Source: Patescibacteria group bacterium (GTDB taxonomy: Bacteria; Patescibacteriota; Patescibacteriia; UBA10025; JAHIVO01). Taken from it: a DNA stretch of 64,000 nt. The notes beneath the pieces were generated by a model. The model was not told where the DNA came from, did no database searches, and worked only from the letters and a program-made list of their open reading frames with translations. A program made the translations under genes and the position numbers. The stretch lies in contig JBAZKE010000005.1 of NCBI GenBank assembly GCA_041650915.1, positions 11,310-75,309 of the forward strand, read 5' to 3'. Positions 10,724-36,279 of this stretch are shown in pieces (the stretch's first letter is position 1; every line of letters starts with the position of its first letter).

Positions 10724-11743
10724 TCACCTGTTCTTTTCTTGCCCTTGCGTGCTTGTACGACCCCTTTCCTTATGCTCACGCAGGTACTTGAAAACGTCAG
10801 CGCGCTTAATGCCGACCGGGCATACCCTGTCGCACCTGCCGCAGTTCACGCAGCCCATGATCTGGAACTCCTTCGGCGTCCGCACCCACTTGTGCGTATA
10901 CCAGTTCTGGATGCGCTGGGCGTTCGTCTTGAGAAACTTCTGTCCGCCGCCGATCTCGGAAAAATCGTTGTAAAAGCAGGTTGTCCACTTCCGGACGCGC
11001 CTGCCGCTCCCCTTTTCCTTCGTATCCTGCTCGTCCTCAATATTGAAGCAGTAGCAGGTCGGGCAGTCTACCGCGCACTTGCCGCACGCAGTGCAGATCG
11101 CCCCCCAGTGCTCCCACGCGTCCTGTGAAGCTTCAACAATCTCCTTACGGTGGCGCTCGAGCTCGGGGTCAATGCCCTCTTCTTTCAGAAGCCCGGCAAA
11201 CTCGATGTGCTCAAAATCCTTGATGCCGAGCTCTTCGAGTATCACCTGCCCCTTTTCCGATCCGGTAAAAACCTTCCACGCCGCTTTCCCCGTCTTTGCA
11301 AGGAAAATATCGAAAATTATGTGCTCGAGAATGTCCTCCTCGTACCGTTCCCTGAGGTGCCCGGAAAAACCCGATCCCTCGAACAGCGCATGCCCGACGA
11401 GCAGGCTCGTTTGGCGTTTTTTCTGGTAGTACGGGTCGCGCTCGAACGTCTGGTGGAAAAGCCCGACAGCTTTCAGGTCCATCACGGACATCAGAAAAGC
11501 GCACTCCGGCGCATACTGCAGCTTTGGCTTGAGCATCGTGCCCTTTTTGTAATCGAAAAGTGTTTCACGCTTCGGCAGGAGCACGTGTTTGAACGTATTG
11601 ACCGGGATTTGGGGCGAGAAATCGATCTCACCTATGTCCGTTACGCGCTGTACGTACAGTTCGCTGCCGTCCCGTACCGGTGCGTACATCGCATACGCTT
11701 CCAGCAGGTGCGCGATAAATTTATGTAACGTTGCCCGATTCAT
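10724..11743 (-). CDS. hydrogenase beta subunit (HydB/AsrA-like, two 4Fe-4S ferredoxin motifs)
   Basis: Has CTACGKCAVDCP and CVNCGRCDRVCP motifs. The track ORF runs to 11959, but that would overlap the upstream gene's terminator. The start at ATG 11743 (MNRATLHKF...) gives 340 aa, the family-typical length. Confidence 0.8.
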   Translation of the reverse strand: MNRATLHKFIAHLLEAYAMYAPVRDGSELYVQRVTDIGEIDFSPQIPVNTFKHVLLPKRETLFDYKKGTMLKPKLQYAPECAFLMSVMDLKAVGLFHQTFERDPYYQKKRQTSLLVGHALFEGSGFSGHLRERYEEDILEHIIFDIFLAKTGKAAWKVFTGSEKGQVILEELGIKDFEHIEFAGLLKEEGIDPELERHRKEIVEASQDAWEHWGAICTACGKCAVDCPTCYCFNIEDEQDTKEKGSGRRVRKWTTCFYNDFSEIGGGQKFLKTNAQRIQNWYTHKWVRTPKEFQIMGCVNCGRCDRVCPVGIKRADVFKYLREHKERGRTSTQGQEKNR

Positions 11744-11752
11744 GGTGCGTGC

Positions 11753-11781
11753 ATTATAACATAAATCATCACTCTGCTCAA
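11753..11781 (-). promoter_or_regulatory. candidate promoter TTGAGC-17-TATAAT directly upstream of the hydB start (near-leaderless)
   Basis: Minus strand reads ttgagcagagtgatgatttatgttataatgcacgcaccATG. The -10 box ends 9 nt before the ATG. Confidence 0.45.
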
Positions 11782-11792
11782 CATACGTGTTC

Positions 11793-11830
11793 ATAAAAAT
11801 CCCCCACGAAGAAGCGAGGCTCCGCAGGGG
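11793..11830 (-). terminator. intrinsic terminator hairpin after the CHAP/CTD gene (copy 1 of a duplicated terminator)
   Basis: Minus strand: cccctgcggag-cctcgctt-cttcgtggggg followed by ATTTTTAT. An 11-bp stem with G-U wobbles. Nearly identical to 35530..35567. Confidence 0.6.
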
Positions 11831-11865
11831 ATTTGGATGACAGGCCTCCCGGACGGGAGGGAGTA

Positions 11866-14800
11866 CTACTTGAGCAGTACCATTTTTTTTGTTTGCACGG
11901 CGTCCCCCGCGCGGATGCGGTAAAAATAGATGCCTGATGCGTACCGGCCAGCGGCCCACGAGATTTCGTGCTGGCCAGCAGTCTGGTATTCGTCAACGAG
12001 CGTTGCTACCTTTTGTCCGAGGATGTTGTACACGGAGAGCTCGACCATGCACGCGGTCGGCAACTCATACACAACCGTCGTTACGGGGTTAAACGGATTC
12101 GGGTAGTTCTGCCGGATAACGAGTTCTTCGGGCAGGACGTCATCACCCAGCTTATACGCATAGTGCGGGATATCAAGCGGGATAATGCCGGCCTCAACGG
12201 TATCGCCCGCGTTGATAGCTGCGGCAATGTCACGAGCAAGGAGGTCGCACGGACTCGCGTTGCCGCTGATCCAGCAGTCGATGGGGCTCGCACGGATAAG
12301 CGAATCACAGTACGTAATCGCCTGGGAAACCGACGCTCCGTCAGCGCTCACGGAATCCGACAGCGAGAGCCGGTATGCCGCGGCGTTCAGCATCAGCGCG
12401 GCAAGCTGCTGCTGTGCCTGGGATTGGATCGTTACGTAGCAATACGGGCCGGTTCGTTTTGCCATGACCGCATAACGCTCGGCGTTTTTGACCTCGAATT
12501 CCCGATGGCACACGCGCCTGTTGAAGAGCCCTGCCAGCTGCCCGAGCCGAGCGGAGCATTCCGGTTCATCGCTGATCACGACGGACCGAATGGGATGCGC
12601 ACGGTTCCCGTTGAAGTGGCGTTTGATGCGGTCAGCGAACGCGCAGAGGCTGTCGACAGGCTCAACGCCGGACGAATCGCCGTACACGATCTCATTGAGT
12701 TCGTGCCGCCAGTAGCTGGACCGCTGCTGGTTCGGAACGATATCCAGCTGCGTCAGCGAAAATGCCACACTGGCGTCCGCGCCCTGCAATACGGATACCG
12801 CTGCGAGATCGGAATCGGCCGCATACCCCAGCGGCGGCAGTATTCCGACCGAGTACTCGCCCGTAAGCACGTGCGGCAGTTCAAACGATCCGCTCGCGTC
12901 GGTATGCGCCGTGTATTGGCACACGCCGAACGTATCGCACACGTCAACCGCAACGCCGCGAACGCCTGCCATCGCGTCGTCAACCACGGTTCCGGAAATG
13001 GAGCCGATCGGCGCTGATCCCGCGACGAGCGCGTACGGATACGCGTCATGCGGGATATCGATGGCCTCAACCCCAAACGTCCACTCGCCGGCTGCGTCCG
13101 GCACGAACTCCGCTGTTATCGGCGGCTGGCTGGACTGCCATTCGCCGAATACGGTCCCGTCAGGACGGTACGCCGTCAGCTTGAGCTCGCTGCCGAGCCA
13201 GTTGAGCAGCAGCCGCCAGGTCTCGTGGAAACTGTCAATTACGAAATCCCACAATGAAGTGTCGCCTTCATCTATGTAGCCTTCGACGCCGCCTTCCTGC
13301 GTATACGCATCCGGCAGCTGATCTCCAGTCTCCTCCAATAACATGGCAGCGTGGTAGAGCGCGGCGATATCTTCATCCGTCAGCGCCCGATCGTACAGGC
13401 GAACCTCATCAACCGTGCCCGGCAAAAACCCGTCGAAATTGCTGTATCGCCCGATACGAAGGTTCTTGCCATAATTCTGTATGGTTCCGCTCAGCGGGCA
13501 TGAGCCGATGAACTCCGCGTTAACGAATAGCTCTATGGCAGACCCGTCATACGTTCCCACCACGAAGTACCAATTCCCAGGCGTCCAAAAACCATTGTCA
13601 GTTCCCACAGAAGCGTGGGAGCCGGCTGTCACCGAGAAAAGGAACTTCGCGTAGTATTCGCCGTCGTACTGGTCGCCGCACGCTCCAAGGTGGTACTGGT
13701 AATACGGAAACGCGTGCCGCAGATACCCCTTGTCGAAAAGAGGATCGTTGCCCGTGCCCTGGAATGACACCGGCCGGTACCATGCCGCGAGCGTGAGAGC
13801 ATTCGGAGGATTGAGGCTGGCCGCATTGCCGAGATCGATATGGTCGTCAATGCCGTCGAAATCCAATGCCAGGCCGGATATCCCGTCAACCGGAGTAGCG
13901 CCGTATACGGTGCCGTCATTGCCATTCCCCGAATTATCGCCCGCATCCCCAGCATCGAAACTCCAGTAAGCGACCAGGCCGGCTGACAGCGGGTCTACCC
14001 GGATCTTTAGCGTCAGCCCTTCCCCGGAAAAATGCTCTCCCGAGTGCGGCCGGTACAGCGCCACGTACAGGTAGTAGTCACCCGGCGTAAAAGGAGCCTG
14101 AATCTGGAATGAATACAAACCCTGTCCGCCGGGATTAACCAATCCTTCGGGATCGCCTTCCGTAGAAACAATGGCTACACAATTGGGATCAATCCAGTCG
14201 TACGCCAATTCGGATGGCAATCCGTCACTCCACGGTTCAGCGCTTCCCGGACCGGTCACCGATTGCAGCTCCACATAGTGCGGGCTGTTCTCATCATTGG
14301 TCCAGTACGCCGTGCCGAGATTATTGAACGTAAACGACACATTCAGTACCTGCCCAGGAGCTACCGGATAATAGTCCAAGCCGGGTGGGTAGATGGGGGT
14401 TTGGGAGGACCAGCAGGCGTCGTAAGTACCACCATAGTCAGGATCCCGGAGCCAGCCTTGGGTAACATACGCACCACTACTACTAAATGATCCTACACTA
14501 TAGGGCGGGTTAGATGATAGAGAAAGCTGTTTCGGATCCGGCTCTATTTGACCATCGGTTCGATTCTGATCAATCATCAGCACATAGTCCGGCCCAACTT
14601 CCATTATGATTCCTACGTGACCAGCATTATCATGCTCCGGCGCAGGGCCAAAACAGATAATGTCGCCCGATTCCGGTGGAATAATGGACTCGCCATTTAC
14701 ATACTGATCAAGAGTGTCAGTACTCGCCCATGAATCGAAGGCATTTTTGGCCACTCCTCCACTGATGGGATTAAGTGGGTTTAATACCTCAAACTCATAG

Positions 14801-15033
14801 AAACGCTTCACATACTCGACACACTGATAAAAGCCGCAGCCTCCTCCAGTCCAATCACCATTGGAGTGGGCAGTAATTCCTCTGAACTCAGCGAGTGGAC
14901 AGCCATAGTTACCGGAAGCCCATTGCCCCTCCTGACCACAGTCTTCATCAAAGTAGATCTCAGGACAATCAGCAAACGATGGTGTGGAGAGTAAATTCCA
15001 TACCATGAGACACAAGAACATCACGTGTTTCAT
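11866..15033 (-). CDS. secreted multidomain protein: N-terminal CHAP peptidoglycan amidase/peptidase domain, LamG/concanavalin-like domain, carboxypeptidase-regulatory-like domain, C-terminal T9SS-type sorting domain
   Basis: 1055 aa. Signal peptide (MKHVMFLCLMVWNLLSTPSFA). CHAP region (CGFYQCVEYVKRFYEF ... HVGIIMEV). LamG-like (WYRPVSF...VDEVRLYDRALTDEDI). CTD NYPNPFNPVTTVVYELP...VYNILGQKV...SGIYFYRIRAGD...MVLLK. Confidence 0.8.
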   Translation of the reverse strand: MKHVMFLCLMVWNLLSTPSFADCPEIYFDEDCGQEGQWASGNYGCPLAEFRGITAHSNGDWTGGGCGFYQCVEYVKRFYEFEVLNPLNPISGGVAKNAFDSWASTDTLDQYVNGESIIPPESGDIICFGPAPEHDNAGHVGIIMEVGPDYVLMIDQNRTDGQIEPDPKQLSLSSNPPYSVGSFSSSGAYVTQGWLRDPDYGGTYDACWSSQTPIYPPGLDYYPVAPGQVLNVSFTFNNLGTAYWTNDENSPHYVELQSVTGPGSAEPWSDGLPSELAYDWIDPNCVAIVSTEGDPEGLVNPGGQGLYSFQIQAPFTPGDYYLYVALYRPHSGEHFSGEGLTLKIRVDPLSAGLVAYWSFDAGDAGDNSGNGNDGTVYGATPVDGISGLALDFDGIDDHIDLGNAASLNPPNALTLAAWYRPVSFQGTGNDPLFDKGYLRHAFPYYQYHLGACGDQYDGEYYAKFLFSVTAGSHASVGTDNGFWTPGNWYFVVGTYDGSAIELFVNAEFIGSCPLSGTIQNYGKNLRIGRYSNFDGFLPGTVDEVRLYDRALTDEDIAALYHAAMLLEETGDQLPDAYTQEGGVEGYIDEGDTSLWDFVIDSFHETWRLLLNWLGSELKLTAYRPDGTVFGEWQSSQPPITAEFVPDAAGEWTFGVEAIDIPHDAYPYALVAGSAPIGSISGTVVDDAMAGVRGVAVDVCDTFGVCQYTAHTDASGSFELPHVLTGEYSVGILPPLGYAADSDLAAVSVLQGADASVAFSLTQLDIVPNQQRSSYWRHELNEIVYGDSSGVEPVDSLCAFADRIKRHFNGNRAHPIRSVVISDEPECSARLGQLAGLFNRRVCHREFEVKNAERYAVMAKRTGPYCYVTIQSQAQQQLAALMLNAAAYRLSLSDSVSADGASVSQAITYCDSLIRASPIDCWISGNASPCDLLARDIAAAINAGDTVEAGIIPLDIPHYAYKLGDDVLPEELVIRQNYPNPFNPVTTVVYELPTACMVELSVYNILGQKVATLVDEYQTAGQHEISWAAGRYASGIYFYRIRAGDAVQTKKMVLLK

Positions 15034-15112: not shown

Positions 15113-15820
15113 TTATGTTAGTTTAAGTGTTGAAATTATCATTTCTATAACATCAATTTCACTCGAAAGGTCTGTTGCGGCAAAGTTTTGTTCGTAGGTC
15201 GCGTTGTCCGATAGAGGATAAATGACCGAATACTCTGCGTATAACACCCTATCACCGACTTGTGGAAAAATTGTTGACTCATTTCCTAAATACCATGCTT
15301 TTATTTTACTATCAACGACAACAACGGTAGTAGGCACTTCACGTTCATGAATGGTTACTGGATCACCTGGCACATACTTTCCATTATATGTCACAAAAAA
15401 GTAAGTCCTACTGGTTAATAAATATGAATCATCAACCTTCTTGATACCTAATTCTAACTCTCGATCATTATTTTCACTTGAAAACCTCACAAATTTTGCA
15501 TCGCCTGATAGGTTTGGATTATCAATTAATTCAACATCCTCGACTGTCCACTCGGACGGGATTTTTATCGAGTATCCGTGCTCTTCATTCTCATACGTCA
15601 ACCAGTCTGAGGTATCGATGTCTGAAAGAGTGGCTGTATTTGTGTTCTCGTTTGAATTAGCATCGGTATTAATATTGGTCGCTGTATTCACATTTTCATT
15701 GGTGGCAACAATATTCGTAGTATTCGTATTCCCCTCATTATCCTGAAAAAACAGGAAATACCCGCCAGCCAGGATAATGGCGGCGATGAGGACGCTGACG
15801 ATAAGTGTTGTTTTTGACAT
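15113..15820 (-). CDS. membrane-anchored N/T-rich protein, paralog family member A (possible partner of the adjacent hydrolases)
   Basis: 235 aa. Starts MSKTTLIVSVLIAAIILAGGYFLFFQDNEGNTN, then an N/T-rich low-complexity linker, then DTSDWLTYENEEHGYSIKIPSEWTVEDVEL. Paralogous to 16705..17367 and 31881..32609, and more weakly to 35604..36266. Confidence 0.6.
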   Translation of the reverse strand: MSKTTLIVSVLIAAIILAGGYFLFFQDNEGNTNTTNIVATNENVNTATNINTDANSNENTNTATLSDIDTSDWLTYENEEHGYSIKIPSEWTVEDVELIDNPNLSGDAKFVRFSSENNDRELELGIKKVDDSYLLTSRTYFFVTYNGKYVPGDPVTIHEREVPTTVVVVDSKIKAWYLGNESTIFPQVGDRVLYAEYSVIYPLSDNATYEQNFAATDLSSEIDVIEMIISTLKLT

Positions 15821-15918: not shown

Positions 15919-16608
15919 CTAACTACCAAACTTGAACGTAAACGACACATTCAGTACCTGCCCAGGAGCTACCGGATAATAGTCCAAGCCGGGTGGGTAG
16001 ATGGGGGTTTGGTCGGCGTAGGTGGCTTCGTAGAACTTGCCAGGAGTGTTTTGCACAATCCAGGCAATAGGATCAACCCAGCCGTTGTATGGAGGTGTAA
16101 CCGGTAACTCGAGTGCCCCATACGGATCGGGGGGCATGTCTCCACCAGGATGAACTCCAAAGTGTAAGTGAATCCCATATGACCACGGACCAACAATCGC
16201 AATCTCTTCACCAGCTTTAACCTCATCTCCTTCTCCCAAGCCACTTCTGACATGACCATAGACCGCAACAAACTCCGTCCCGTCTTGAAGGGTATGAAGG
16301 ATGAACAAGCCTACGTTATCATCTCCCCAGCCGCCATCACCGACATCCAGAATCTCGCCGTCTGCTATTGCATAGACGGGATCCCAAAGGTAGGTAGCGA
16401 TATCCCAGCCGATGTGATAGAAACCAGGAAAGTAGGTTCCATTAGGCGGGGGCTCCTCAAGCCACGCCGCATAGTCTCCGAGTTCACTGGTGCCAGTCGG
16501 ATAATAAAACCCGGTAGGCGTCTGCTCAAGCGTCTGTGCATTTACTATGATATTACCAAGCATCATAGTCAGCACAACAACAATTACAACCATTACTGCT
16601 TTCATCAT
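15919..16608 (-). CDS. secreted M23/LytM-family peptidoglycan endopeptidase
   Basis: 229 aa. Signal peptide. HIGWDIA...AIADGEI...GHV...GIHLHFG (HxxxD ... HxH M23 active-site pattern). The C-terminal 27 aa are identical to an internal segment of the 11866..15033 protein. Confidence 0.8.
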   Translation of the reverse strand: MMKAVMVVIVVVLTMMLGNIIVNAQTLEQTPTGFYYPTGTSELGDYAAWLEEPPPNGTYFPGFYHIGWDIATYLWDPVYAIADGEILDVGDGGWGDDNVGLFILHTLQDGTEFVAVYGHVRSGLGEGDEVKAGEEIAIVGPWSYGIHLHFGVHPGGDMPPDPYGALELPVTPPYNGWVDPIAWIVQNTPGKFYEATYADQTPIYPPGLDYYPVAPGQVLNVSFTFKFGS

Positions 16609-16704: not shown

Positions 16705-17367
16705 TTATAGTAATTCAAATGTGCTGACAAACGCATCGTACAATTCTTCGCGTTCTGAAGTGAATACAGGTGCGAATTGACTCCCTGTTGCAATCTGGTA
16801 GTAATATGTTTCTCCAAGCAGAATAGAATTTGCACCAATCTTCCTTGTACCACTTTCCAACTGAGCAGTGGCATTATATCTCCATGCGTCTTTGTTGTTA
16901 ACAGAGATAGTTAAATATTCGTTTTTATCGTTAACAGAAAGAGGCACTCCACTATTTACTAACTCATTTAAAGTATTTGCACCCGCATTGTTGCTTGCTA
17001 ATATCCGAATGACCAGGTCACCTATCGAAAAATTAACAATATACCCCAAATCCTCGTCATCATTGATCCCACTAGTCAACTCTTGATAAGTCGCATCACT
17101 TGGATACTTCACAGAATACCCATACTCCTCGTTCTCATACGTCAGCCAGTCTGAGGTATCAATGTCTGAGGTAAGGGCGTTGACATTAGTATTTTCATTG
17201 TCATTAGTGGCTGTGTTGACATTGGTGGCATTCATATTCTGATTAGCAGCAACAGTATTGGCGTTATTGGTATTATCACCCTCATTATCCTGAAAAAACA
17301 GGAAATACCCGCCAGCCAGGATAATGGCGGCGATGAGGATACTGACGAGAATGGTTGGTTTTGACAT
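16705..17367 (-). CDS. membrane-anchored N/T-rich protein, paralog family member B
   Basis: 220 aa. MSKPTILVSILIAAIILAGGYFLFFQDNEGDNTNN... DTSDWLTYENEEYGYSVKYPSD. The first 30 aa are almost identical to 15113..15820. Confidence 0.6.
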   Translation of the reverse strand: MSKPTILVSILIAAIILAGGYFLFFQDNEGDNTNNANTVAANQNMNATNVNTATNDNENTNVNALTSDIDTSDWLTYENEEYGYSVKYPSDATYQELTSGINDDEDLGYIVNFSIGDLVIRILASNNAGANTLNELVNSGVPLSVNDKNEYLTISVNNKDAWRYNATAQLESGTRKIGANSILLGETYYYQIATGSQFAPVFTSEREELYDAFVSTFELL

Positions 17368-17626: not shown

Positions 17627-20506
17627 TTAACTCCTTTTTTCCTTTTCAGCGGTTGTGCTCTCCCCGCTGTGCAGCGGAATCAGAACGTTGAACGTTGATC
17701 CCTTTCCAATGCCATCGGACTCAACCCAAATATTGCCTCCGTGCGCTTCGGCGAGCCGCCGCGCAACGTACAGCCCGAGGCCGGACCCGTCGGGGTTGAC
17801 CTGCGCGATGCCGTACCCGCGCACGAACTTCGTGAACAGCTTCTTCGCCTCTTCCGGCTCTATGCCGCGGCCGGTATCCTTAACCGCAAAATGCATATAC
17901 TCGCCGTGCGGTTCGGCGATGAGCGTAACGGACCCCTCGTCAGTGTACTTGATCGCGTTGTCGGTGAAGTTGAGCACGATATCGCCGAGCTTGTCCTTAT
18001 CCGCAAACACAAGCGGAAGCTTTTTCTTCGGTTTGTGAAAAATCAGCTTGAGCTTTTTCTCGTCCGCCGCCTGCTGCACCATCGACATGACCTTGTCGAC
18101 AACCTCCTCAATGTGGACTGGCGTACGGTTGAGTTCGAGCCGCCCTGACTCGATCTTGGACACATTGAGGAACAGGTTGATGATGCGGATCATGCGCTGC
18201 GACTCCTCGAGCAATCCCACGAGTATCTTGTGCTGCTCTTTCGGCACCTTGCCGAAATCACCCTGCAGGATCATTGACAAATAGCCCATAATGCCCGTCA
18301 TCGGCGTCCGGAGCTGGTGTGACGTGATCGATACGAACTCGGATTTAGCCTGGTCGAGCTGCTGCAAATGCTTGTTCGCCTCGCCGAGGTCTTTATTTGA
18401 CCGTTCGAGCTGGCGGTACAGCTCGATGTTCCGCGATACGATGCCGGACTGGTTGGCAAGCGCTTTCATGATAGAGATGTCGGTCGGCTTGATCTGGCCG
18501 GGCTCGTGGGCGAGCAGATAGACAATAGCGCCAACGATTCCCTCTTCCGAATAGATCGGGACGGAAATCACCGTCCGCACCTTGAGCAGCTTCTGCATTT
18601 TCTGTACGATTTCCTCCGGAACGGCTGGCGAGAGAAAGTCGGTAAACTCCGTGCCGATCTGCACCTGGCCTCCCTTAACGGTTTTCACCGTCCTGCTCTT
18701 GCTCGTCGTGTAGTCGCCCCAATACTCGCTCATCGGCTTTGGCAGCAGCCCGAGGGCTTGCTTGATTGGCTGGCTTTGCGTCACCGCATCGGCAAATAGC
18801 CGATGCCGGTCTTTCCCGAGGAAGAGCACGATGCCGCCAATGTACCCGAGCTCGGTCGCGATGCTGTCCGCTATCGTCTGTGTCACTTTATGGAAATCGA
18901 GCGTGCGGGTGATGAGGTTCGTGACGTTCTGCAGCGCTGACAGGAACTTATTCCGCTCCTGGAGCTGCAGATTGGTATTGCGCAGGTCTTCCGTGGAGAT
19001 CGCAACCTCTTTTTTAAGCCGCTCGGTGAACTGCTGGGCTTCTTCATATAACCGCGACTTCTCGAGCGCGGAAGCGAGCTGCGGCCCGATCAGCTTAAGC
19101 AAGTTCAAATCTTCGGAGCCGTACGGATCGCCGGACAGCTTTTGCCCGAGCACCATAATGGCGGTGAGTTCGCTTCCCGTCGTGATCGGCGCGACGATCG
19201 TGGCATCGAGGCCATCGAGCTCTTTTTTCGACTCTTCGAGGCCTTTCCGATCCGCTTCATGCTGCGTATCTTCGATCTTCCGCTCGAGCCCCTCAAGCAC
19301 GACTACCTCCTGCGATGCGCGCATGTACTTCACGAGCGCGCTGTTGTGGCTGATGCGCTGTTTATAATCATGCTGGTCACGTTCCGCGAGTTCAGCCAAA
19401 ATTGCATCGTCAATCTTTTCACCAGTTCCCGGATCGATCCTTCCCCTGCGTTTATAAAAAGCTCCACCCGATGCTCCGGTCAGATAAATGCTCGTATTCT
19501 TTACCTTGAGGTCTTTTTCCAGTTTTCTTGAAAGTGAAAATAAGAGTATATCCAAATCAATTTCGCGATTGATGATTTCGGAAAGATCAGTTAAGAGTTT
19601 TTGGTAGTCAACACGTGCTTTAAAGAAAAGGGTGTCAGTCGCCGCGCCTATCCATTTTTTTAAAGGATCTAATATTAAGACAATAAAAATTGAAACGACC
19701 AGTGCAATTAATAATCTTAGAGGAGTGTTCAATACTGCTTGAGGCAAACTGATTGTCATAACTACCACTGTCGTGGCAATAATAAATACTAGAACAGAAT
19801 AGGTAATAGTGCGTAGCACTACAAAACGAATATCTAATAATCGATGCCTAACAATAGCATAAGACATGAAACCAATCATAAAAACAGAAAAGGATGGACC
19901 GATATTACCAAACTCCACGCTAAAAAATCGAGGCAATATTAAATTTACACTAAAAGCAGAAATGATAAAGAGTATTATTCCCAGAAAAGTATACTTCAAT
20001 TGCAATTTACTCACACCAGATGACTTTCGAAATTTCTTGACAAATAAATACAAGATATATATTACATAGATTGCAGCATATAAAATATAATAATTAACCC
20101 CTGGTCCAAATACATCTCTTGGATCCAAACCTTTAATTACAGCGACACTCGAATCAAGTTTAATTAGAAACGGACTTGTGAAAATCGTGCCTAAAAAAAA
20201 GATTCCTCCCAGAATCAAAATATAAAAGAATACTTTATTTTCTTGCCTATCTCGCCTAGGAAAATTCTTTAAAAAAATTAAAAAAACAATCAAGGCAATA
20301 GTACTAAAAAGGTAAGAAAACTTTACCCAAAGAACATGTTCACCTGATAATCTGGTGATTAGTACCGAACAATTCCACGTGGCAATAAATAACGTTGTCA
20401 ATGCAAACAAACGATTGATAACTGCCCGTTTCCGAGAATAAACAAGGTAGCCAAAAAAAATACTCAATAACGTGGTCAACCCTAAAATGATATTTTCTGG
20501 ATTCAT
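17627..20506 (-). CDS. sensor histidine kinase: N-terminal multi-TM sensor domain, GAF domains, HisKA, HATPase_c
   Basis: 959 aa. About 8 TM helices. H-box SHQLRTPMTGIMGY. G-boxes DTGRGIEPE...GSGLGL. Starts 3 bp after the upstream methyltransferase stop. Confidence 0.85.
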   Translation of the reverse strand: MNPENIILGLTTLLSIFFGYLVYSRKRAVINRLFALTTLFIATWNCSVLITRLSGEHVLWVKFSYLFSTIALIVFLIFLKNFPRRDRQENKVFFYILILGGIFFLGTIFTSPFLIKLDSSVAVIKGLDPRDVFGPGVNYYILYAAIYVIYILYLFVKKFRKSSGVSKLQLKYTFLGIILFIISAFSVNLILPRFFSVEFGNIGPSFSVFMIGFMSYAIVRHRLLDIRFVVLRTITYSVLVFIIATTVVVMTISLPQAVLNTPLRLLIALVVSIFIVLILDPLKKWIGAATDTLFFKARVDYQKLLTDLSEIINREIDLDILLFSLSRKLEKDLKVKNTSIYLTGASGGAFYKRRGRIDPGTGEKIDDAILAELAERDQHDYKQRISHNSALVKYMRASQEVVVLEGLERKIEDTQHEADRKGLEESKKELDGLDATIVAPITTGSELTAIMVLGQKLSGDPYGSEDLNLLKLIGPQLASALEKSRLYEEAQQFTERLKKEVAISTEDLRNTNLQLQERNKFLSALQNVTNLITRTLDFHKVTQTIADSIATELGYIGGIVLFLGKDRHRLFADAVTQSQPIKQALGLLPKPMSEYWGDYTTSKSRTVKTVKGGQVQIGTEFTDFLSPAVPEEIVQKMQKLLKVRTVISVPIYSEEGIVGAIVYLLAHEPGQIKPTDISIMKALANQSGIVSRNIELYRQLERSNKDLGEANKHLQQLDQAKSEFVSITSHQLRTPMTGIMGYLSMILQGDFGKVPKEQHKILVGLLEESQRMIRIINLFLNVSKIESGRLELNRTPVHIEEVVDKVMSMVQQAADEKKLKLIFHKPKKKLPLVFADKDKLGDIVLNFTDNAIKYTDEGSVTLIAEPHGEYMHFAVKDTGRGIEPEEAKKLFTKFVRGYGIAQVNPDGSGLGLYVARRLAEAHGGNIWVESDGIGKGSTFNVLIPLHSGESTTAEKEKRS

Positions 20507-20508
20507 AT

Positions 20509-21219
20509 TTACTCAGCTCTTGCTATAATCAGCTCAAACTGGTCTGAATAGGTGAGGCGGCAATCAATTATATGGAAATTGGTTTTTTCTAAAAGGCACC
20601 TAATATCATTTTGAAAAAAATATCTTAATCGTAAAGAAAAATACCGTCGCTTAATGTTGACGAGAAAGGAAGAAATAATACGAGGATTTCTAATCATCTT
20701 GTTGAGTAACCCGTGCCGTAAATCACTAAAAAATATTTTCAATCTATTCGATCCCTTTCTTGGATAAGTTAAAATAAGTAGTCCCTCTTTTCTTTTCAAT
20801 ATCCGATTAAATTCTCTTAATAACATTTCCGGCGATTGAACATCCCAAATAACGCTCAAGCATACCACGATACTAAAATAATTCTTTTTGAATGGTGTTG
20901 ATGAATCTAAATCGATATTTTGTAAGTGGACCCGCCTACCAAAAAATTTTTTCTCCAAATAACTAATAATCTCAGCTTGGTTATCAATGCCCCAAACTTC
21001 AACATAAGGGAACAAACTTTTAAATCGATCTAGGAAATTTCCAGTCCCAGTGCCCGCGTCAAGTAATCTACTTGCTCTTCTCTTTAAAATGTCACCTCTA
21101 AACTCTCCAATAATCTCGATAATGTCCGACATCATTCGATTATACGAAGGGCTGTTTTGGACAATTAAATCATAGTCGTCTAAATAGCTCGACCAAAAAT
21201 CTTTTTTTTCACTCTTCAC
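20509..21219 (-). CDS. SAM-dependent methyltransferase (class I)
   Basis: 236 aa. The LDAGTGTGNFL glycine-rich motif I. Overlaps the upstream ligase gene by 11 bp. Confidence 0.7.
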   Translation of the reverse strand: MKSEKKDFWSSYLDDYDLIVQNSPSYNRMMSDIIEIIGEFRGDILKRRASRLLDAGTGTGNFLDRFKSLFPYVEVWGIDNQAEIISYLEKKFFGRRVHLQNIDLDSSTPFKKNYFSIVVCLSVIWDVQSPEMLLREFNRILKRKEGLLILTYPRKGSNRLKIFFSDLRHGLLNKMIRNPRIISSFLVNIKRRYFSLRLRYFFQNDIRCLLEKTNFHIIDCRLTYSDQFELIIARAE

Positions 21220-22705
21220 GATTATTTACATACTTATTTTTAATCCCTGAGGACATATTCCCACGAATAAAATCTATAATAATCGGGGTATAATTTATGT
21301 GAGTTACTGCATCTGCAAACTCCCGATTATTTTCCTGGATCTCCTTAGTAATTATTTTTCTAAAATCTTCACGCAAAGATTCCGATCCCTTAATATCCTT
21401 TTTTAATTCTATCAAAATTGAAATTATGGGTTCTTGGTTTTGATTCTCCTTTTTTTCAACAATAAATCTTCCTGTATGATGACGCGCGATGTGTTTGTTG
21501 CTCAAGGCTCCTTTAATATTTTCAATGTATACATTTGCCCCCCTAAAAGTCACCCCTCCGTCACTTCGACCAGCAATCAACAAAAACGGAAACTTCATCA
21601 TCAATTGCAAAGAACCCTCGTAGGTTCCGATAATTTTCTCAATATCGATATCAAACCTCAATAACTCCGTCTTCATTCGCTGAAAAGTTATTACGTCGCC
21701 TAAATCATGGATGTTGTATCTCACCAATGGCGATATCGACCTAGTACTTGCGATGACTTCGTTATTTACAGCCTCAGCAAAAAAATTAATCGGATTATAC
21801 TGAAATAGCATTGGTGTCATATTCGAAAATCTAGAGAAAACCTCGTTTGCCACGGAGTGGTCAGCAAAACAAGCTCTACGAATCTTTATCGAAAGTGGTG
21901 TTTCAAAACCAGTACCTCGACCAAATTCCGTAACGCCATAACTCGATTGAATTCTTTGAATAATATCCCTCTCGTCACTAATTTCTAATAATTGGGCGAG
22001 ATAATCACGAAGTCCCTCAGGAAAGCCTTCTCCTCCGGTATTAATGTATACTTTTATTTTTTTATGAAACCCCAAACGATTCACCTTTTCAATTAAATTT
22101 TTTATAAAGGGGGGGTAACCAGTAATAATAACCTGATCGTAATAAGAAGAGAAAACCTCGAGAATACTAATCACTGTATTTATATCAGGGCCTGGGTTTA
22201 CACTCAAAAGAGAATATCTTTTCTTATACCCAATCTCTTTAATTAAGCGAGACACTTTCTCACCGCTCGGCCAGATACCGAATGCATAGCAATTAATAAA
22301 AAGTGTAGAACGCCTATCTACGTTACCAATAGTACGTAATAAAAACTCAAATTGTTTTCTAGTTTGATAATCTTCCTCCGGAGATCTTAAAAAAAATGTT
22401 GTTGCGCCAGAATAGCCAGAACTTCCTTCTAAAGAATGTGCCCGTTTTATAGCACTCTTAATAGATCTATCGAAAATATTAAACCTACTCAGGTAACTTG
22501 TCTTATCAATAATGGGCAATGCTCGAAATTCCTGGAAGGAATTAATTTTCTTAACCGACGCTCCTTTCTCTTTCAAAAAAATACAATAAGCCGAAACTTC
22601 ATTTATTGTATCATTATAAAGCTTAATAGCATTCTTTATACTATCTCGATGCATATTCCTTATTTTTCTCCTTGCAATAGGAAATAGTAAAGCCTGAAAA
22701 TCCAT
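21209..22705 (-). CDS. adenylate-forming enzyme of the PaaK/coenzyme F390 synthetase-like family
   Basis: 498 aa. GSSGYSGATTFF (P-loop-like), SSYGVTEFG (YGxTE), IAGRSDGGVTFRGANVY (cf. PaaK GRxDDMIIxRGVNVFP). Confidence 0.65.
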   Translation of the reverse strand: MDFQALLFPIARRKIRNMHRDSIKNAIKLYNDTINEVSAYCIFLKEKGASVKKINSFQEFRALPIIDKTSYLSRFNIFDRSIKSAIKRAHSLEGSSGYSGATTFFLRSPEEDYQTRKQFEFLLRTIGNVDRRSTLFINCYAFGIWPSGEKVSRLIKEIGYKKRYSLLSVNPGPDINTVISILEVFSSYYDQVIITGYPPFIKNLIEKVNRLGFHKKIKVYINTGGEGFPEGLRDYLAQLLEISDERDIIQRIQSSYGVTEFGRGTGFETPLSIKIRRACFADHSVANEVFSRFSNMTPMLFQYNPINFFAEAVNNEVIASTRSISPLVRYNIHDLGDVITFQRMKTELLRFDIDIEKIIGTYEGSLQLMMKFPFLLIAGRSDGGVTFRGANVYIENIKGALSNKHIARHHTGRFIVEKKENQNQEPIISILIELKKDIKGSESLREDFRKIITKEIQENNREFADAVTHINYTPIIIDFIRGNMSSGIKNKYVNNREE

Positions 22706-22711
22706 ATTAAG

Positions 22712-23410
22712 TCATAATATTGTTATATTCTTGTGATCATGTCGTAAAAAATGATAAAAAAAGGGATTCAATGTTTTTAACTTTTCATTACTATCGGTAA
22801 TATCATTAATCAAAGTGACAGAAAGACTCTTATCATCGACTCCGTAATATTTGTATGGAAAACTTATAGCACGAAAGCCAAACTGCTTATATCGCTCTCC
22901 ATGCTCTACAGAACATGTAATAACAAAATGAGTAATCCCGTTGTTAATTGCATATATAATTGCTGACTTTATTAAACCCAACGAAACAATTTTATTTCGA
23001 AAATCCTTTTTCACAACAAAACGTGATAACTCTGCATACCTCGCATTATTAGGCATATATTGCTTCACCGTATAATGCTCTTCTGTCAGAACTTGCTTTT
23101 GGTGATTTGGTATGATCCGAATTCCTCCAATTACTTGACTGTGTTGATTTGTGACTACAATTGACGTTGCATACACATCGTATTGGTCTGTCTCCATCTC
23201 GGAAGGATAATCTTCCTTCGGTAAAAATCCCTTCTCTAGACAATAAACTTGATACCTTAATCGGAATAAATATTTTTGCTCATCTTCTTTTGCGATGTGA
23301 AAAGAATACTGTCTCATCCTATAATTAACCACTGGCAGTGAGAATATTAATAGAATTTTCCTTTCAAACCATTTTTGCACATTCATATCACAATTTATAT
23401 CATACCACAA
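22712..23410 (-). CDS. LuxI/FeeM-like N-acyltransferase (autoinducer synthase / N-acyl amino acid synthase fold, GNAT-related)
   Basis: Contains the ...ARYAELSRFVV... motif characteristic of this family, and the N-terminal LFRLRYQVYCLEKGF pattern. The true start is more likely ATG 23317 (MRQYSFHIAKEDEQ..., about 201 aa) than the track's 23410. Confidence 0.5.
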   Translation of the reverse strand: MWYDINCDMNVQKWFERKILLIFSLPVVNYRMRQYSFHIAKEDEQKYLFRLRYQVYCLEKGFLPKEDYPSEMETDQYDVYATSIVVTNQHSQVIGGIRIIPNHQKQVLTEEHYTVKQYMPNNARYAELSRFVVKKDFRNKIVSLGLIKSAIIYAINNGITHFVITCSVEHGERYKQFGFRAISFPYKYYGVDDKSLSVTLINDITDSNEKLKTLNPFFYHFLRHDHKNITIL

Positions 23411-23682
23411 ATTCCTACTTTTTTCAAGTCAGAAAAAACGACAAAACATCAAATACCCTAGTATTTATATGCTCCTCGACTGTGCGAGTTATATTCATAT
23501 GATTTTTCTTTGTATTTTCTGGCGCCTTAATTATAACAAAAACTCACCCTTAAGAAAAGAGGTCTTATTAAAACATCCTTTTTACTTCCTTATCCTCTCA
23601 ACAGCCGGCAAGGCTAAACTCTAATCTTTAAATCCTAAACCCTAAACAATATCAAAATTCAAAATACTAATGTTCTAAACAG

Positions 23683-24042
23683 TTATTTTGATTTTTCCAG
23701 AATTGCCCCAAAAATCTTCATGAGCTCGGTTGATTCCTGGATGAGCTTTTTTCTACTTTCAAATTCTCTCTGGTCAGGTTCAGTAAGTTCTAACCAATAT
23801 CTCCTCTCCTTTGCTTCCTTGCGGCAGATTTTAACGCGCATTATAAAATCCTTCTTGCTTAACGCTTCGTTTGCTTCGATGTAGTTTGCACCGACAGAAC
23901 CTGCTGAACGAACTAACTGTTTTCCAAACTCATAGTGGCTCACGCTCTTTGGTAAGGTTTTGCAGTATCGAGATACACTTCTGGTATAGTTAAGCGTTCT
24001 ATCCTCCAAATCAAACCGTTTTGAATTTTGAATTTCCGTCAT
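23683..24042 (-). CDS. four-helix-bundle protein (23S rRNA intervening-sequence protein family)
   Basis: 119 aa. LVRSAGSVGANYIEANEA.SKKDF..K..IC.KEAKE...WL matches the family signature. Paralog of 26170..26547. Confidence 0.75.
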   Translation of the reverse strand: MTEIQNSKRFDLEDRTLNYTRSVSRYCKTLPKSVSHYEFGKQLVRSAGSVGANYIEANEALSKKDFIMRVKICRKEAKERRYWLELTEPDQREFESRKKLIQESTELMKIFGAILEKSK

Positions 24043-24080
24043 TTGAACTTGTTTAGTATTTCGAAATTAGGATTTAGTAT

Positions 24081-25520
24081 TTAGTGCCTCGTACCAATTC
24101 GTTCCACCGCTTGTTTATACAGCAACGCATTCGCTATTGCATTCGTCATTTGGAACTGAAGTCTGGATAAATACTCCACGTTGTCGGAGGTATATGCCTC
24201 GTTCTTTTTTTTGCGTCCGAACGTGAAAGCGCCGATGAGCTCCCCCTTTTCTCCGATCGGCAACACCATGCTGACCCCCAGCTTTTGTAACGTCGCCTCC
24301 GCATCGAGGAGGAGCTGCTTCTCGCCATTTTCCTCCTCATCAGCCCGGTACGGAATCTCTTCCGTTATCAATACTCCCAGGTGCTCGCGTAAATACTGGA
24401 ATACGGAATCGGTAGGCTCCAGCTCGATGCGCTTATCCTCTTTGTAGTAATTTTCTAGTTTGCCATTCCGTTTATTGAGCCAGATAAATTGAATGTCCTG
24501 CACTTCCAGGAAATCAGCTAACAAAAGTATTACCTTTTTAATCAGCTGGTCAAACTGGACCGAAGACGAGAGTACGATCCGCAGCTTATGCGCCTCTTCC
24601 TGGGCTGATTTTTTCCGTGCGTAGAACACCCTATCAATCATTGTCACTAAAACTCTCCGCAGTGGTTCAACGCTGGTTACAATTATCAATACCAGAATAA
24701 TCGTAGCAGTCTGTTCTTGCCAAGCGTACTGTTCGATCAGTAATCGCTGGAATATTATAAGAAGGTAAATGTATAAAAAAAGTATTATCAATAATGCAAT
24801 AAAATGTACAAACCCTTTGCGGAAAGCGAGTTTGATATCAAGCAAACGGTAACGAAGAATTGCATATGACATCCCAGCCGTCATAAAAATTGTACATAGA
24901 GGTCCGAACAATGATGGCCGTACATCCAGAGAACTAATAAAAAGAGGCCAAATTAAATTTGTGAACACTCCCCCAATAGCACTGATGGCAAAACCAGCAA
25001 TAACATACCTCAATTTTAGCTTTTCAATGGGAAGCGCACTTTTGTACGTTTGAAAAAAATAATAAAATCCGATAAAAAAATAGAGCAGGATATACATGCA
25101 ATAAAATGGGTACCAGGAACCGTAAACGGAACCATTTAAGCCGCCTATAGCATTTTGAACGGACTCTTTAAATACTAGACTTGTTAAACTAAGGCAGCAA
25201 AAAAATATTGGCAGTACTGACAATATAAAATTCTTTTTTATAGGAACTTTTTTCTCCTTTGGAAAATGTAAAACAAAATAAATAAATAAGGGTACAATCA
25301 ACGAAGCAGATACAAATGCTGCTCTACCAGTTATTAATGCCAATTGGCAATCGCTACTAATATTTGAATAATAGCTGCTTCCCACCCAAGCACTCACAAC
25401 AAACGATAAAAAGAAAAAATAAATATTGACCTTCCGCCTCACTCCTTTTAGCAGAACAAACAATCCGAGCGAGATATTCGCCACAACCACAAAAATTGTG
25501 ATAATGCCAAGTAACGTCAT
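24081..25520 (-). CDS. membrane sensor module (multi-TM + GAF) without kinase output; paralog of the histidine-kinase N-terminal half
   Basis: 479 aa. About 8 TM helices ending in ILRYRLLDIKLAFRKG (cf. IVRHRLLDIRFVVLRT in the kinase), then a GAF-like domain. No H-box or ATPase. Confidence 0.65.
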   Translation of the reverse strand: MTLLGIITIFVVVANISLGLFVLLKGVRRKVNIYFFFLSFVVSAWVGSSYYSNISSDCQLALITGRAAFVSASLIVPLFIYFVLHFPKEKKVPIKKNFILSVLPIFFCCLSLTSLVFKESVQNAIGGLNGSVYGSWYPFYCMYILLYFFIGFYYFFQTYKSALPIEKLKLRYVIAGFAISAIGGVFTNLIWPLFISSLDVRPSLFGPLCTIFMTAGMSYAILRYRLLDIKLAFRKGFVHFIALLIILFLYIYLLIIFQRLLIEQYAWQEQTATIILVLIIVTSVEPLRRVLVTMIDRVFYARKKSAQEEAHKLRIVLSSSVQFDQLIKKVILLLADFLEVQDIQFIWLNKRNGKLENYYKEDKRIELEPTDSVFQYLREHLGVLITEEIPYRADEEENGEKQLLLDAEATLQKLGVSMVLPIGEKGELIGAFTFGRKKKNEAYTSDNVEYLSRLQFQMTNAIANALLYKQAVERIGTRH

Positions 25521-26113
25521 TGCTTTCTCCCTTTAAACCCCTCATCCTTACTAATTATCTCTTCCAAAAAATCCCGCAGGAAATCCGCCTTTGTTTTTTT
25601 AACCTTTTTCGACTTCCACTCCAGGTACCGTTCCATGGTCGGCGTGATGCGGAGCGTAAACTTGACCGTCGGCTTTTCCTCGACTCCCCTGCCGGCGCCC
25701 GCCTCACTGAGAAAATCTACCACCTTCTGGTCGAGGTCTTTATTCGTGTACGGCGTCAGCCGGACAAACTCCGGCGCACTCTTCCGGGTCAAGTACCCGT
25801 ATGCGATCTTCTCCGGAGCGCCCTTCTGGTACAGGTACAGGAGCGGCTTTTTCTGCGAGATGGCGTACGCGAGCAAATATCCGATCTCCTGGTCGGGCCT
25901 CGATGCTTCGATGATGATGCAGTCCATCTTGTCGAGCAGGATCTCCCCCGACTCGTTCATCCGCTCGAGGTCTTCCTTCTTGAAATCGGAGTTGTTCTCA
26001 TCGGACGATGCGATGACGAACACGCCGGCAGCGCGCAGCGTCTCGACGATCCGCTTGTAATTCCGGTCGAGTTCGGCCGTAGATATTAATGGTGAGAAAA
26101 AGTATATCCGCAT
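25517..26113 (-). CDS. hypothetical protein, co-operonic with the upstream sensor module (4 bp overlap)
   Basis: A 198-aa ORF. The N-terminal half has an alpha/beta pattern and the C-terminus a short basic helix (KFTLRITPTMERYLEW). No family assignable. Confidence 0.45.
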   Translation of the reverse strand: MRIYFFSPLISTAELDRNYKRIVETLRAAGVFVIASSDENNSDFKKEDLERMNESGEILLDKMDCIIIEASRPDQEIGYLLAYAISQKKPLLYLYQKGAPEKIAYGYLTRKSAPEFVRLTPYTNKDLDQKVVDFLSEAGAGRGVEEKPTVKFTLRITPTMERYLEWKSKKVKKTKADFLRDFLEEIISKDEGFKGRKQ

Positions 26114-26586: not shown

Positions 26587-27582
26587 TTACAACCCATTAC
26601 TCCACATCATCATGCGGATCTTGCCTACATCCCGCGTCTGCCCCAAAACCCACATGAAGCGGACAAACGCGGTTTCAAACGTCATGTCGTTGACGAGGAT
26701 ATACTCGCGCTTTTTCTTTTTTACGTCCAGGGCAAAGGGGTTGTGCGCGAGAATCGGCACCTTTTTCTTGTACGCACGATCGAGTACCGGCTTGTAGCTC
26801 TCCGGAAACAAATTCGTATTGAAGCTCTTGATAACGATGCCTTTGCACCCCTTTCGCATCATGCTATCCAAGAGCTCCGGCCCTGCGCCCGGGTACAGCT
26901 GCAGCAAACATACCGTATCCTCGACCGAATCAAACAGCTTGGGTTTTTGCTTCGAGCGCTTTTTGGCTGCCTCGTATACCTTGATGCCAAAATCAACCTT
27001 GCCGAGCAATCCGTCCCGATACGCGTCAAAAATGTTGAACGAAGGCGAATCGCTCTTGACCGCCTTGGTCGCCTTGAGGAGGCGGTTGCCGAACATGATC
27101 GCCGCCTCGGCGATGTCCATGGTCGCGACCTGTATCGCGTTGATGAGGTTCGCCTTCACGCCGAGCGTCTTGTAGTTGTGTATGAGGCCGGAGAGGTCCT
27201 GCTTTCCGCTGTCGGTCACCTCGACTGACAGCGGCGATCCGGTGAAGATGACCGGCTTCGGAAGGGGCTGCAGCATGTGGGCTATCATTGCGGATGAGTA
27301 GAGCATCGTATCAATTCCGTGGATAATGACAAAGCCGTCGTACCTCGGCATCCGGTCGAATATTTCGCGGGCGAGCTTTGACCAGAGCTTCGGTTCGATC
27401 TCGGACGCGTCCCCGCCGAAAACGAACACCGGCTCGACATCGGCGATAAGGTTGATTTCCGGCACAGCGGCAATCCACGCCTTCATGTCAGGCGCTTTTT
27501 GAACGGAAATCACCTTCTCCCCTGCAACGAGTGCAGATCCTCCGCAGAACAGCAATGCAATTTTTGACTTTTTTGATGACAT
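26587..27582 (-). CDS. L-asparaginase family protein (type I-like)
   Basis: 331 aa. IALLFCGGS..., and VIIHGIDTMLYSS corresponds to the asparaginase hGTDTM motif. Confidence 0.75.
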   Translation of the reverse strand: MSSKKSKIALLFCGGSALVAGEKVISVQKAPDMKAWIAAVPEINLIADVEPVFVFGGDASEIEPKLWSKLAREIFDRMPRYDGFVIIHGIDTMLYSSAMIAHMLQPLPKPVIFTGSPLSVEVTDSGKQDLSGLIHNYKTLGVKANLINAIQVATMDIAEAAIMFGNRLLKATKAVKSDSPSFNIFDAYRDGLLGKVDFGIKVYEAAKKRSKQKPKLFDSVEDTVCLLQLYPGAGPELLDSMMRKGCKGIVIKSFNTNLFPESYKPVLDRAYKKKVPILAHNPFALDVKKKKREYILVNDMTFETAFVRFMWVLGQTRDVGKIRMMMWSNGL

Positions 27583-27744
27583 TTCTGTTGGTCATTCTGG
27601 GTCCCGCTTTTCGGGACGAAGAATCTTTATGGCGTAATTGAATGACTTTCTTAAATTATTTCACGGTAGGTTTCGAAACTCCCAGCTTACTCCTTCAGAT
27701 GGCTCCTTCCCTGCCTATGGGCAGGCCCACGCGATGTCGGAAAA

Positions 27745-28010
27745 AAGCATGCCATGGCGAGGAGGAATCCCCTTCTCCCCTCCGCCACTCTGAGCCCACC
27801 GAAGCGCCATCGCGGAAGGCAGGAAAAGAATCCCCTGGCCGGAGGCTTCGAGATCGCCACGTCGCCTTCGGCTCCTTGCGATGACCCAGGGAAAAAGCAT
27901 GTCGTTGCGAGAAAGAATCCCCTTCTCCCCTCTGTCACTCTGACGACGGCGTAAGCCGGAGAAAGAGTCCCCTGGCCGGAGGCCAGGAGATACTTCGCTT
28001 TCGCTCAGTA
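27745..28010. repeat. array of degenerate ~150-bp palindromic repeat units immediately 3' of GIY-YIG gene 1
   Basis: The unit ccctggccggaggcttcgagatcgccacgtcgccttcggctccttgcgatgacccagggaaaaagcatgtc (27831..27902) recurs at 28990..29060 and partially at 29200..29262. The sub-motifs gaatccccttctcccctc.g.cactctga and gtc(a/g)t(t/g)gcgag also recur. Confidence 0.6.
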
Positions 28011-28313: not shown

Positions 28314-28320
28314 AGGATTT

Positions 28321-28953: not shown

Positions 28954-28974
28954 AGTCGATATGTAATTCTATTT

Positions 28975-29290: not shown

Positions 29291-29300
29291 CGAAGCAATC

Positions 29301-29600: not shown

Positions 29601-29665
29601 AGGATGTATTCATACTGCATGAGGGTTCTTCGCCCGCGGCACTCGCTCAGAACGGAAAACGTTTT

Positions 29666-36266: not shown

Positions 36267-36279
36267 AGAAAAGGAGAGC

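Follow-up and report, generated by a model that had tools for sequence, protein, structure and literature searches.

Shared 3′ ends of two outward-facing CHAP hydrolase genes in a Patescibacteria genome point to gene conversion

Introduction

How do two genes that differ over most of their length come to end in nearly the same sequence, down to the terminator behind the stop codon? The question is raised by a 64,000-nt stretch of DNA from a Patescibacteria group bacterium (hereafter the window; contig JBAZKE010000005.1, positions 11,310–75,309 of the forward strand), in which two genes encoding proteins with a CHAP domain, here gene A and gene B, share an inverted repeat at their 3′ ends. The repeat spans part of a C-terminal domain (CTD) of the type known from the type IX secretion system (T9SS), together with an intrinsic terminator, and had been pointed out in an earlier note made from the sequence alone. 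Our analysis makes it likely that this repeat was left by gene conversion (recent, non-reciprocal homologous recombination) involving the 3′ ends of the two genes:

11866–15033, minus strand: gene A, 1055 residues, with putative signal peptide, CHAP domain, stalk, LamG_3, CarboxypepD_reg and T9SS-type CTD (Por_Secre_tail) by Pfam and NCBIfam; identical to P0121 / MFA5135395.1; the probable recipient of the exchange.
32685–35495, plus strand: gene B, 936 residues, with putative signal peptide, CHAP domain, middle region, five FG-GAP repeats and T9SS-type CTD (Por_Secre_tail) by Pfam and NCBIfam; identical to P0357 / MFA5135413.1.

Two genes related by one domain

Genes A and B point outward from an interior of 23.3 kb. 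At the protein level, the BLASTP alignment between them is restricted to the last 89 residues (78% identity, E 5e-40), and no similarity was detectable by BLASTP between the remaining parts, CHAP domains included. They are paralogous by domain only and lie on one Patescibacteria chromosome, with CTDs that are 81% identical. These CTDs score 35.6 (A) and 39.1 (B) bits against PF18962 (cut-off 27) and 45.0 (A) and 44.7 (B) against TIGR04183 (cut-off 23), the profile matches falling at the extreme C-terminus (residues 977–1052 of 1055 in A and 858–933 of 936 in B). A third CTD gene of the window (41590–43467) has a CTD that is only 44% identical and is followed by a different terminator. All three CTDs lie above the curated cut-offs, at the extreme C-terminus and on proteins with putative N-terminal signal peptides; for A and B, the hydrophobic N-termini were read by eye from the translations with no predictor and end in FADC and IMAD, respectively. 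We also noted that the GC content at third codon positions (GC3) is 0.37–0.48 in the parts coding for the CHAP heads (14000–15033 and 32685–33100) vs 0.65–0.79 in the remainder of both genes, which fits different histories of heads and bodies.

The two copies of the shared tail are:

11795–12034, minus strand: left arm, the tail of gene A (last 56 CTD codons, stop codon, spacer and terminator); 88.8% identity over 241 nt by BLASTN, with alignment and identity profile.
35327–35565, plus strand: right arm, the tail of gene B (last 56 CTD codons, stop codon, spacer and terminator); the probable donor lineage, with a 100% identical copy in a second assembly (L092).

In a self-BLASTN comparison, this pair (35327–35565 on the plus strand vs 12034–11795 on the minus strand) is the strongest repeat of the window, with an E-value of 8.7e-84. 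A separate repeat scan returned an arm of 183 nt at 90% identity (I1) and a hairpin arm of 50 nt at 96% (I3). Perfect runs of 57, 35, 28, and 24 nt are common to both arms, which differ at 27 positions when indels are included (11%), and in both genes the arm holds the same content, that is, the final 56 CTD codons, the stop codon, the spacer, and the terminator. The inner arm ends are separated by 23,293 nt, a figure that corrects the 23.4 kb of the earlier note, which had the orientation right.

Other parts of that description fared variously. An inverted repeat made of the CTD-coding 3′ end and the terminator in two CHAP genes, a terminator hairpin common to both copies, and a diverged segment between stop codon and hairpin were all borne out. 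The last ~130 bp of the genes had been called near-identical; near-identity stands, and the length does not, as the highly similar coding part measures 169 nt (12034–11866). The claim of identical out-of-frame open reading frames failed, as the two frames in question (11778–11996 on the minus strand, 72 residues; 35365–35877 on the plus strand, 170 residues) have only their first 16 residues in common. We regard these and the other out-of-frame or antisense frames over the arms (11968–13017 and 34764–35420) as spurious by-products of the repeat and of high GC content. The word "exons", which had been used for the sorting-signal parts, is wrong for a bacterial gene.

Identity mosaic along the repeat

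Read in the direction of transcription, the shared region and its upstream flank fall into the following segments:

12035–12108, minus strand: gene A's own proximal CTD (NYPNPFNP...VELS), apparently unconverted in a codon comparison with gene B.
11949–12034, minus strand: candidate youngest conversion patch in gene A, partner in gene B at 35327–35412; one mismatch in 86 nt, with perfect runs of 28 and 57 nt.
11866–11948, minus strand: older shared part of the CTD coding sequence with the stop codon, partner in gene B at 35413–35495; ~85% identity.
11845–11865, minus strand: diverged spacer between stop codon and terminator, partner in gene B at 35496–35515; ~29% identity over 21 nt, unalignable.
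11795–11834, minus strand: predicted intrinsic terminator of gene A, 15-bp stem, 8-nt loop and UUUUU, from the minimum-free-energy hairpin.
35527–35567, plus strand: predicted intrinsic terminator of gene B, 14-bp stem, 8-nt loop and UUAUUUU; 14 pairs, 8 of them G-C, in a terminator scan.

The repeat begins abruptly. Over the 24 aligned codons of the proximal CTD upstream of 12034/35327, 16 residues (67%) are common to both proteins, the nucleotide identity is 54%, and 12 of the 16 common residues are encoded by different codons, so that synonymous sites are saturated. At 12034/35327 the identity jumps from 54% to 99%, and within the following patch 83 of 84 compared nucleotides match over 28 codons, with no synonymous difference among 27 shared codons. 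This contrast in synonymous differences (0/27 inside the tract vs 12/16 upstream) is significant by Fisher's exact test (p = 1.2e-7). The last 27 codons are less uniform (69 of 81 nucleotides identical) and differ at ten codons, five of them synonymously and five non-synonymously. Beyond the stop codon lies the unalignable spacer, which in gene A folds into a 6-bp GC hairpin of its own, and then 50 nt at 92% identity, a 35-nt perfect run included. All similarity ends at the U tract (11795/35565). The shared unit coincides exactly with the distal CTD half and the closing part of the transcription unit, and forms a discrete and sharp-edged tract within otherwise diverged homologous sequence.

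The two hairpins agree closely. The 35-nt perfect run sets in upstream of the hairpin and takes in most of it, and the sole difference in the stem is a G-U pair in A for a G-C pair in B. There is no difference in the loop or in the 12-nt 5′ flank, neither of which is under a base-pairing constraint. Fold energies of the hairpin segments are −24 to −26 kcal/mol (z −2.7 to −4.3), and a degenerate pattern of the hairpin has exactly two matches in the window and none in 100 shuffles. By their stable GC-rich stems of 14–15 bp, 8-nt loops, U tracts, and location 20–30 nt past the stop codon, both are predicted to act as intrinsic terminators; in gene B, the hairpin sits between B and a convergent gene (35604–36266).

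Directly outside the left arm, a further feature marks the 3′ limit of the tract:

11741–11781, minus strand: promoter-like site (TTGAGC, 17 nt, TATAAT) and ATG (11743) of the hydrogenase beta-subunit gene, from a promoter scan.

The start of the beta-subunit was confirmed by an alignment from residue 1 with its orthologue on a related contig (L086). The TATAAT lies only ~10 nt before this ATG, in the window as well as in L086 (11770–11799), and the spacing suggests a leaderless or near-leaderless hydrogenase transcript that would start right after the terminator of gene A.

Probable gene conversion between the 3′ ends

The abrupt 5′ boundary inside the CTD, the synonymous contrast across it, and incongruence with relatives (see below) all agree with the recent gene conversion that the earlier note had proposed. 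In the course of events that we envisage, A and B would both already have ended in a T9SS-type CTD, A having a CTD and a terminator of its own. Recombination may have been initiated in the conserved core of the CTD that encodes VYNILGQ, and the distal CTD, stop codon, and terminator of A would have been overwritten by the version of the B lineage, the tract ending where A's transcription unit ends, before the hydrogenase promoter. Because identity runs as a mosaic along the repeat (99%, 85%, unalignable, 92%), at least two rounds of conversion are likely, an older transfer of the whole 3′ module and a later one of the young patch of ~86 nt, with an additional indel or replacement in the spacer. 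RecA-type recombination would be the presumed agent. In both genes the CTD is still complete and the predicted intrinsic terminator strong. The inverted arrangement of the arms would be a by-product, since the two hydrolase cassettes point outward.

Homogenization of this kind looks recurrent in the family of CTD-bearing hydrolases, given that another Parcubacteria contig (L089) carries two tandem M23-CTD paralogues whose amino acid identity climbs from 20–30% at the N-terminus to 94% at the C-terminus. A close textbook parallel is found in tufA/tufB of Salmonella and E. coli and in rRNA operons, which undergo concerted evolution as inverted paralogues by gene conversion. In those systems, inverted copies on one chromosome have their synonymous sites homogenized non-reciprocally, as is probable here, and the repeats are able occasionally to invert the interval between them; in contrast to them, the unit here is only a 240-bp 3′ module (half a domain plus a terminator) attached to unrelated gene bodies, and it forms a mosaic of at least two ages.

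A second likeness concerns the cargo. In Porphyromonas gingivalis, T9SS cargo genes (rgpA, kgp, and hagA) encode surface proteins with T9SS-type CTDs and modular C-terminal regions, and their diversity has been attributed to recombination and gene conversion between modules (PMC5266723). That organism belongs to the Bacteroidota, has a working T9SS, and shuffles adhesin domains, whereas here the organism is a Patescibacterium, the exchanged part is the distal CTD with the terminator, and the cargo is a peptidoglycan hydrolase.

Relatives and the probable direction of transfer

For comparison we used 92 fetched loci, a set in which outgroups are few and distant and the compared segments short (75–90 nt), and an exhaustive HMMER search against 1.84 billion representative proteins (one per 50%-identity cluster). 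In the latter, the best match to the CTD of A besides A itself reached 76% identity and all others at most 68%, as compared to 81% between A and B; a word-indexed search with the CTD returned only fragments of at most 65% identity and missed A itself. The 24-nt core of the hairpin had no match in genome-contig or metagenome-contig collections, and look-ups by exact protein (A, B, and P0121) turned up no recorded contig.

Three loci are informative with respect to position. On a JGI contig (L081), a small anchored protein is followed by P0218 (M23, FG-GAP, and CTD), which is 54% identical to B over the last 285 residues and has the CTD closest to that of A (the 76% match). On L002, whose MurF is 65% identical, a B-like CTD gene is convergent on murF and so occupies the position of B. 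Finally, L086, a 651-kb Patescibacteria contig, is collinear with the minus strand of the window (asparaginase, histidine kinase, hydrogenase operon, and PGK, at 56–77% amino acid identity) and has a CHAP-CTD gene exactly at the position of A.

Segment by segment, the nucleotide identity between B and L081 is even (0.73, 0.80, and 0.75 over three segments). Between A and L081 it rises from 0.61 in the proximal segment to 0.81 and 0.72 in the distal ones, and the proximal part of A is closest, weakly, to L086 (0.63). Judging from these identities, tract and flank of gene A are incongruent in their similarity to relatives.

The terminators add a second line of evidence. The stem CCCUGCGG...CCGYGGGG, located at 11802–11829 and 35531–35558 in the window, also stands directly 3′ of B-type genes in L082 (12658–12678) and L090 (12735–12754). 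Its sole other match among the 92 loci is on a gammaproteobacterial contig (L036), with none elsewhere in Patescibacteria-type loci. In L081 and L002 the genes are followed by related stems; the terminators of three other genes (that at A's position in L086, that in L083, and the third CTD gene of the window) are unrelated. The stem is kept with the same wobble positions in genomes whose CTDs are only ~60% identical in nucleotides, and it differs from a plain intrinsic terminator in being unusually conserved among B-type genes of different genomes, which a plain terminator should not need. From the type of terminator and the segment identities, the shared tail, terminator included, was probably that of the B lineage and copied into A.

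Several points weigh against conversion as we describe it. There are only two copies and few, distant relatives. One continuous tract would not explain the 21-nt unalignable spacer between highly similar blocks, so that extra events have to be assumed. Selection could account for part of the hairpin identity, given that the stem is kept across genomes with such diverged CTDs. The database negatives are imperfect, as the word-indexed search missed A and the exhaustive set holds representatives of 50%-identity clusters. The direction of transfer rests on differences of 0.1–0.2 in nucleotide identity over segments of 75–90 nt and on terminator resemblance.

Alternative explanations

The shared tail is not the only repeated patch of these genes. 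Two other short perfect patches link paralogous cassettes of the neighborhood, which counts in favor of conversion and of a recombination-prone gene family, and one broader reading takes all the patches together. Each hydrolase gene is preceded by paralogous genes for small, N-rich, membrane-anchored proteins (15113–15820 and 16705–17367 before A; 31881–32609 before B). An 81-nt perfect direct repeat (14324–14404 / 15932–16012; QTPIYPPGLDYYPVAPGQVLNVSFTF) is read in the same frame in both copies, one in the stalk of A after the CHAP head and the other at the 3′ end of a truncated M23-peptidase reading frame (15919–16608), with a stop codon 13 nt further on. Recombination between these copies would delete the CHAP head together with 15113–15820 and fuse the M23 head in frame to the body of A; integration of a circular cassette by a single crossover would also be in keeping with this layout. 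The small genes 15113–15820 and 16705–17367 share a perfect direct repeat of 61 nt (15732–15792 / 17279–17339) in the region coding for their signal anchor, and together the 61-nt and 81-nt repeats bound tandem units of ~1.55–1.6 kb with differing interiors. Among relatives, the same type of CTD occurs on proteins whose heads are M23 or CHAP and whose bodies are LamG or FG-GAP. One could imagine from this that the CTD-terminator repeat and the 81-nt and 61-nt repeats are the recombination handles of a cassette-shuffling system, by which a Patescibacteria clade recombines heads (CHAP/M23), bodies (LamG/FG-GAP), and CTD tails among units of small anchored protein plus hydrolase. We consider this rather unlikely; if true, the shuffling would diversify cell-wall-attacking surface proteins that the presumed episymbionts use on their hosts, and the B-type hairpin would be more than a terminator.

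Beside such units of small protein and hydrolase-CTD gene in L082 and L090, we noted a large serine recombinase with Resolvase, Recombinase, and Zn_ribbon domains (L082 15485–17116; L090 7277–8956), and these cassettes also adjoin restriction or defense genes. Such neighborhoods suggest that the cassettes are able to ride on integrated mobile elements.

A different use of the arms, raised in the earlier note, would be an inversion switch in which the 23.3-kb interior flips, A and B swap their distal CTD and terminator, and the population contains both isomers. In principle this could happen: the arms are inverted and in the same reading frame, their perfect runs (57, 35, and 28 nt) are long enough for RecA-type recombination, neither chimeric gene would be disrupted, and the end of the second assembly's contig in the interior (window position 31781) could hint at structural heterogeneity. 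Evidence for its occurrence is another matter. A domain search of the sizeable open reading frames in the 64-kb window found no gene for an invertase, a tyrosine or serine recombinase, or a transposase. The order and orientation of the interior relative to the hydrogenase flank are the same as in L086 at 56–77% amino acid identity, the B-like gene of L002 is convergent on murF just as in the window, and GC skew is negative in the interior and flanks alike. The second assembly, moreover, is continuous through the right arm, its break lying 3.5 kb away from the arm, and a swap of five to six CTD residues offers no obvious phenotype to switch. A single orientation was seen in the assembled contigs compared, namely the window, the right junction of the second assembly, and the collinear L086. 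Hin, Gin, and the Rci shufflons resemble the locus in having inverted repeats in coding 3′ ends that exchange C-termini in frame upon inversion; unlike them, the locus has no site-specific recombinase gene in the window and no alternative orientation among the contigs, and its repeats are long and imperfect rather than short crossover sites. Inversion of the interior is unsupported, and a switch is improbable.

Alternatively, the identity could be maintained by selection at the nucleotide level, with no recent exchange, on an RNA or DNA element in the CTD core and hairpin (e.g., a 3′-end-derived regulatory RNA or a protein-binding hairpin). The conserved stem after B-type genes elsewhere, same wobbles included, speaks in favor, as does the identity of the hairpin loop and 12-nt flank in the two genes, and selection could well contribute to the conservation of the hairpin across genomes. 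As the explanation of the whole repeat it is hardly probable. A permissive scan of the arm matched no Rfam family (the only hit, by chance, was NsiR1, E = 0.36, 18 bits vs a gathering score of 39), and the whole window has no Rfam match at gathering thresholds and no tRNA or tmRNA genes. Within the 86-nt core, 19–40% of the positions in L081, L086, L082, and L002 do not match A and B, so that this stretch varies across the family, and unrelated terminators stand at A's position in L086 and behind the third CTD gene of the window. Selection would not yield a sharp step from saturated to zero synonymous difference inside one domain.

The source being a metagenome-assembled contig, the earlier note had also asked whether one copy might be a chimeric mis-join, and one can likewise consider whether reads of the other copy or of another strain were collapsed into it. 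The exact proteins of A and B come from a single contig of 79,289 bp in a metagenome-assembled genome labeled "Patescibacteria group bacterium". Yet a 273-kb contig (L092) of an independent ENA assembly (ERZ27247363) is 100% identical to window positions 31781–45495 (13,715 nt), including B, the right arm, and the murF cluster on its far side. A mis-join at the right arm is unlikely because this contig reproduces the junction. Arms that differ at 27 positions with indels are not a collapsed repeat, each arm runs in frame into its own distinct proximal CTD, and L086 and L002 independently have CTD genes at both chromosomal positions. The perfect runs are also no longer than 57 nt, and the names of related contigs (k141_...) suggest k = 141, at which each such k-mer would reach unique flank. 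An assembly artifact is accordingly very improbable, and the suspicion of a mis-join did not hold up.

Least probable of all is a reading of the arms as terminal inverted repeats, by which a mobile element or composite transposon would have imported a low-GC interior. The arms do stand at the outer ends of a segment whose core (19–25.5 kb) has a GC content of 0.33–0.40 vs 0.55 in the flanks. But genes for a transposase or integrase are absent from the window, the arms are tails of genes and unlike the ends of insertion sequences, the reading is contradicted by the left two-thirds of the interior, which are collinear with L086 across the left arm into the hydrogenase operon, and the low-GC block lies well inside the arms, the interior also holding genes of high GC3 (25517–26113 and 26587–27582).

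Genomic context

The genes around the repeat agree with the Patescibacteria label of the genome. On the left, the flank encodes enolase, PGK, and an operon for a group-3b-like NiFe hydrogenase; on the right follows a cell-division and cell-wall cluster (mraZ-rsmH-ftsI-murF), and the best relatives of MurF, at 66% identity, are from Patescibacteria.

Several other features of the window were noted. The low-GC block (19000–25500) encodes a methyltransferase, an unannotated 498-residue protein, and a FeeM-like N-acyl amino acid synthase or autoinducer-synthase-like GNAT protein. It adjoins genes for seven-transmembrane (7TM) sensor proteins, and the content of the corresponding block in L086 differs, with FeeM and ThiF. 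A GIY-YIG nuclease gene (28005–28382) is surrounded at 27739–29662 by direct repeats of several families, among them a perfect pair of 71 nt (27833–27903 / 28989–29059), and tandem repeats of ~90 nt with an 84-nt perfect overlap lie at 62868–63108, beside a DUF559 or restriction-endonuclease-like gene (62429–62791). Within a 750-nt intergenic region, a GC-rich non-coding stretch of ~300 nt (31262–31582, plus strand) ends in a strong terminator (31550–31574 followed by a T run). This stretch has a fold z-score of −2.2 and no Rfam match, and could be a small RNA that has escaped annotation or what is left of a gene; the end of the L092 contig is nearby (31781).

The T9SS-type CTD in Patescibacteria

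Like the three genes of the window, many homologues annotated as Patescibacteria or Parcubacteria (loci L081–L091) end in a T9SS type A sorting domain (PF18962 / TIGR04183). Patescibacteria are not known to have an outer membrane or a T9SS, and no gene for T9SS machinery (PorU/PorV, SprA, or PorKLMN) is present within the 64-kb window. The CTDs of the window agree with the sequence definition of the sorting domain, in a host without a known T9SS, and their role as a T9SS signal in a Patescibacterium is doubtful because its phylum is not known to have an outer membrane. Our literature searches on T9SS CTDs in Patescibacteria, the candidate phyla radiation (CPR), or Parcubacteria found nothing relevant, while database annotations already name T9SS-type CTDs in Patescibacteria.

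The repeat adds one more case, from an unusual host, to a known process, and involves no new mechanism and no change of concept. What it provides is a clean and datable marker of active homologous recombination and gene conversion in a Patescibacteria genome, acting on secreted peptidoglycan hydrolases, a family whose members from different genomes visibly combine different heads, bodies, and tails. If the CTD has another role in these bacteria, for instance in anchoring to the surface or in interaction with a host, the fact that it evolves in concert would be of use in tracing that role.

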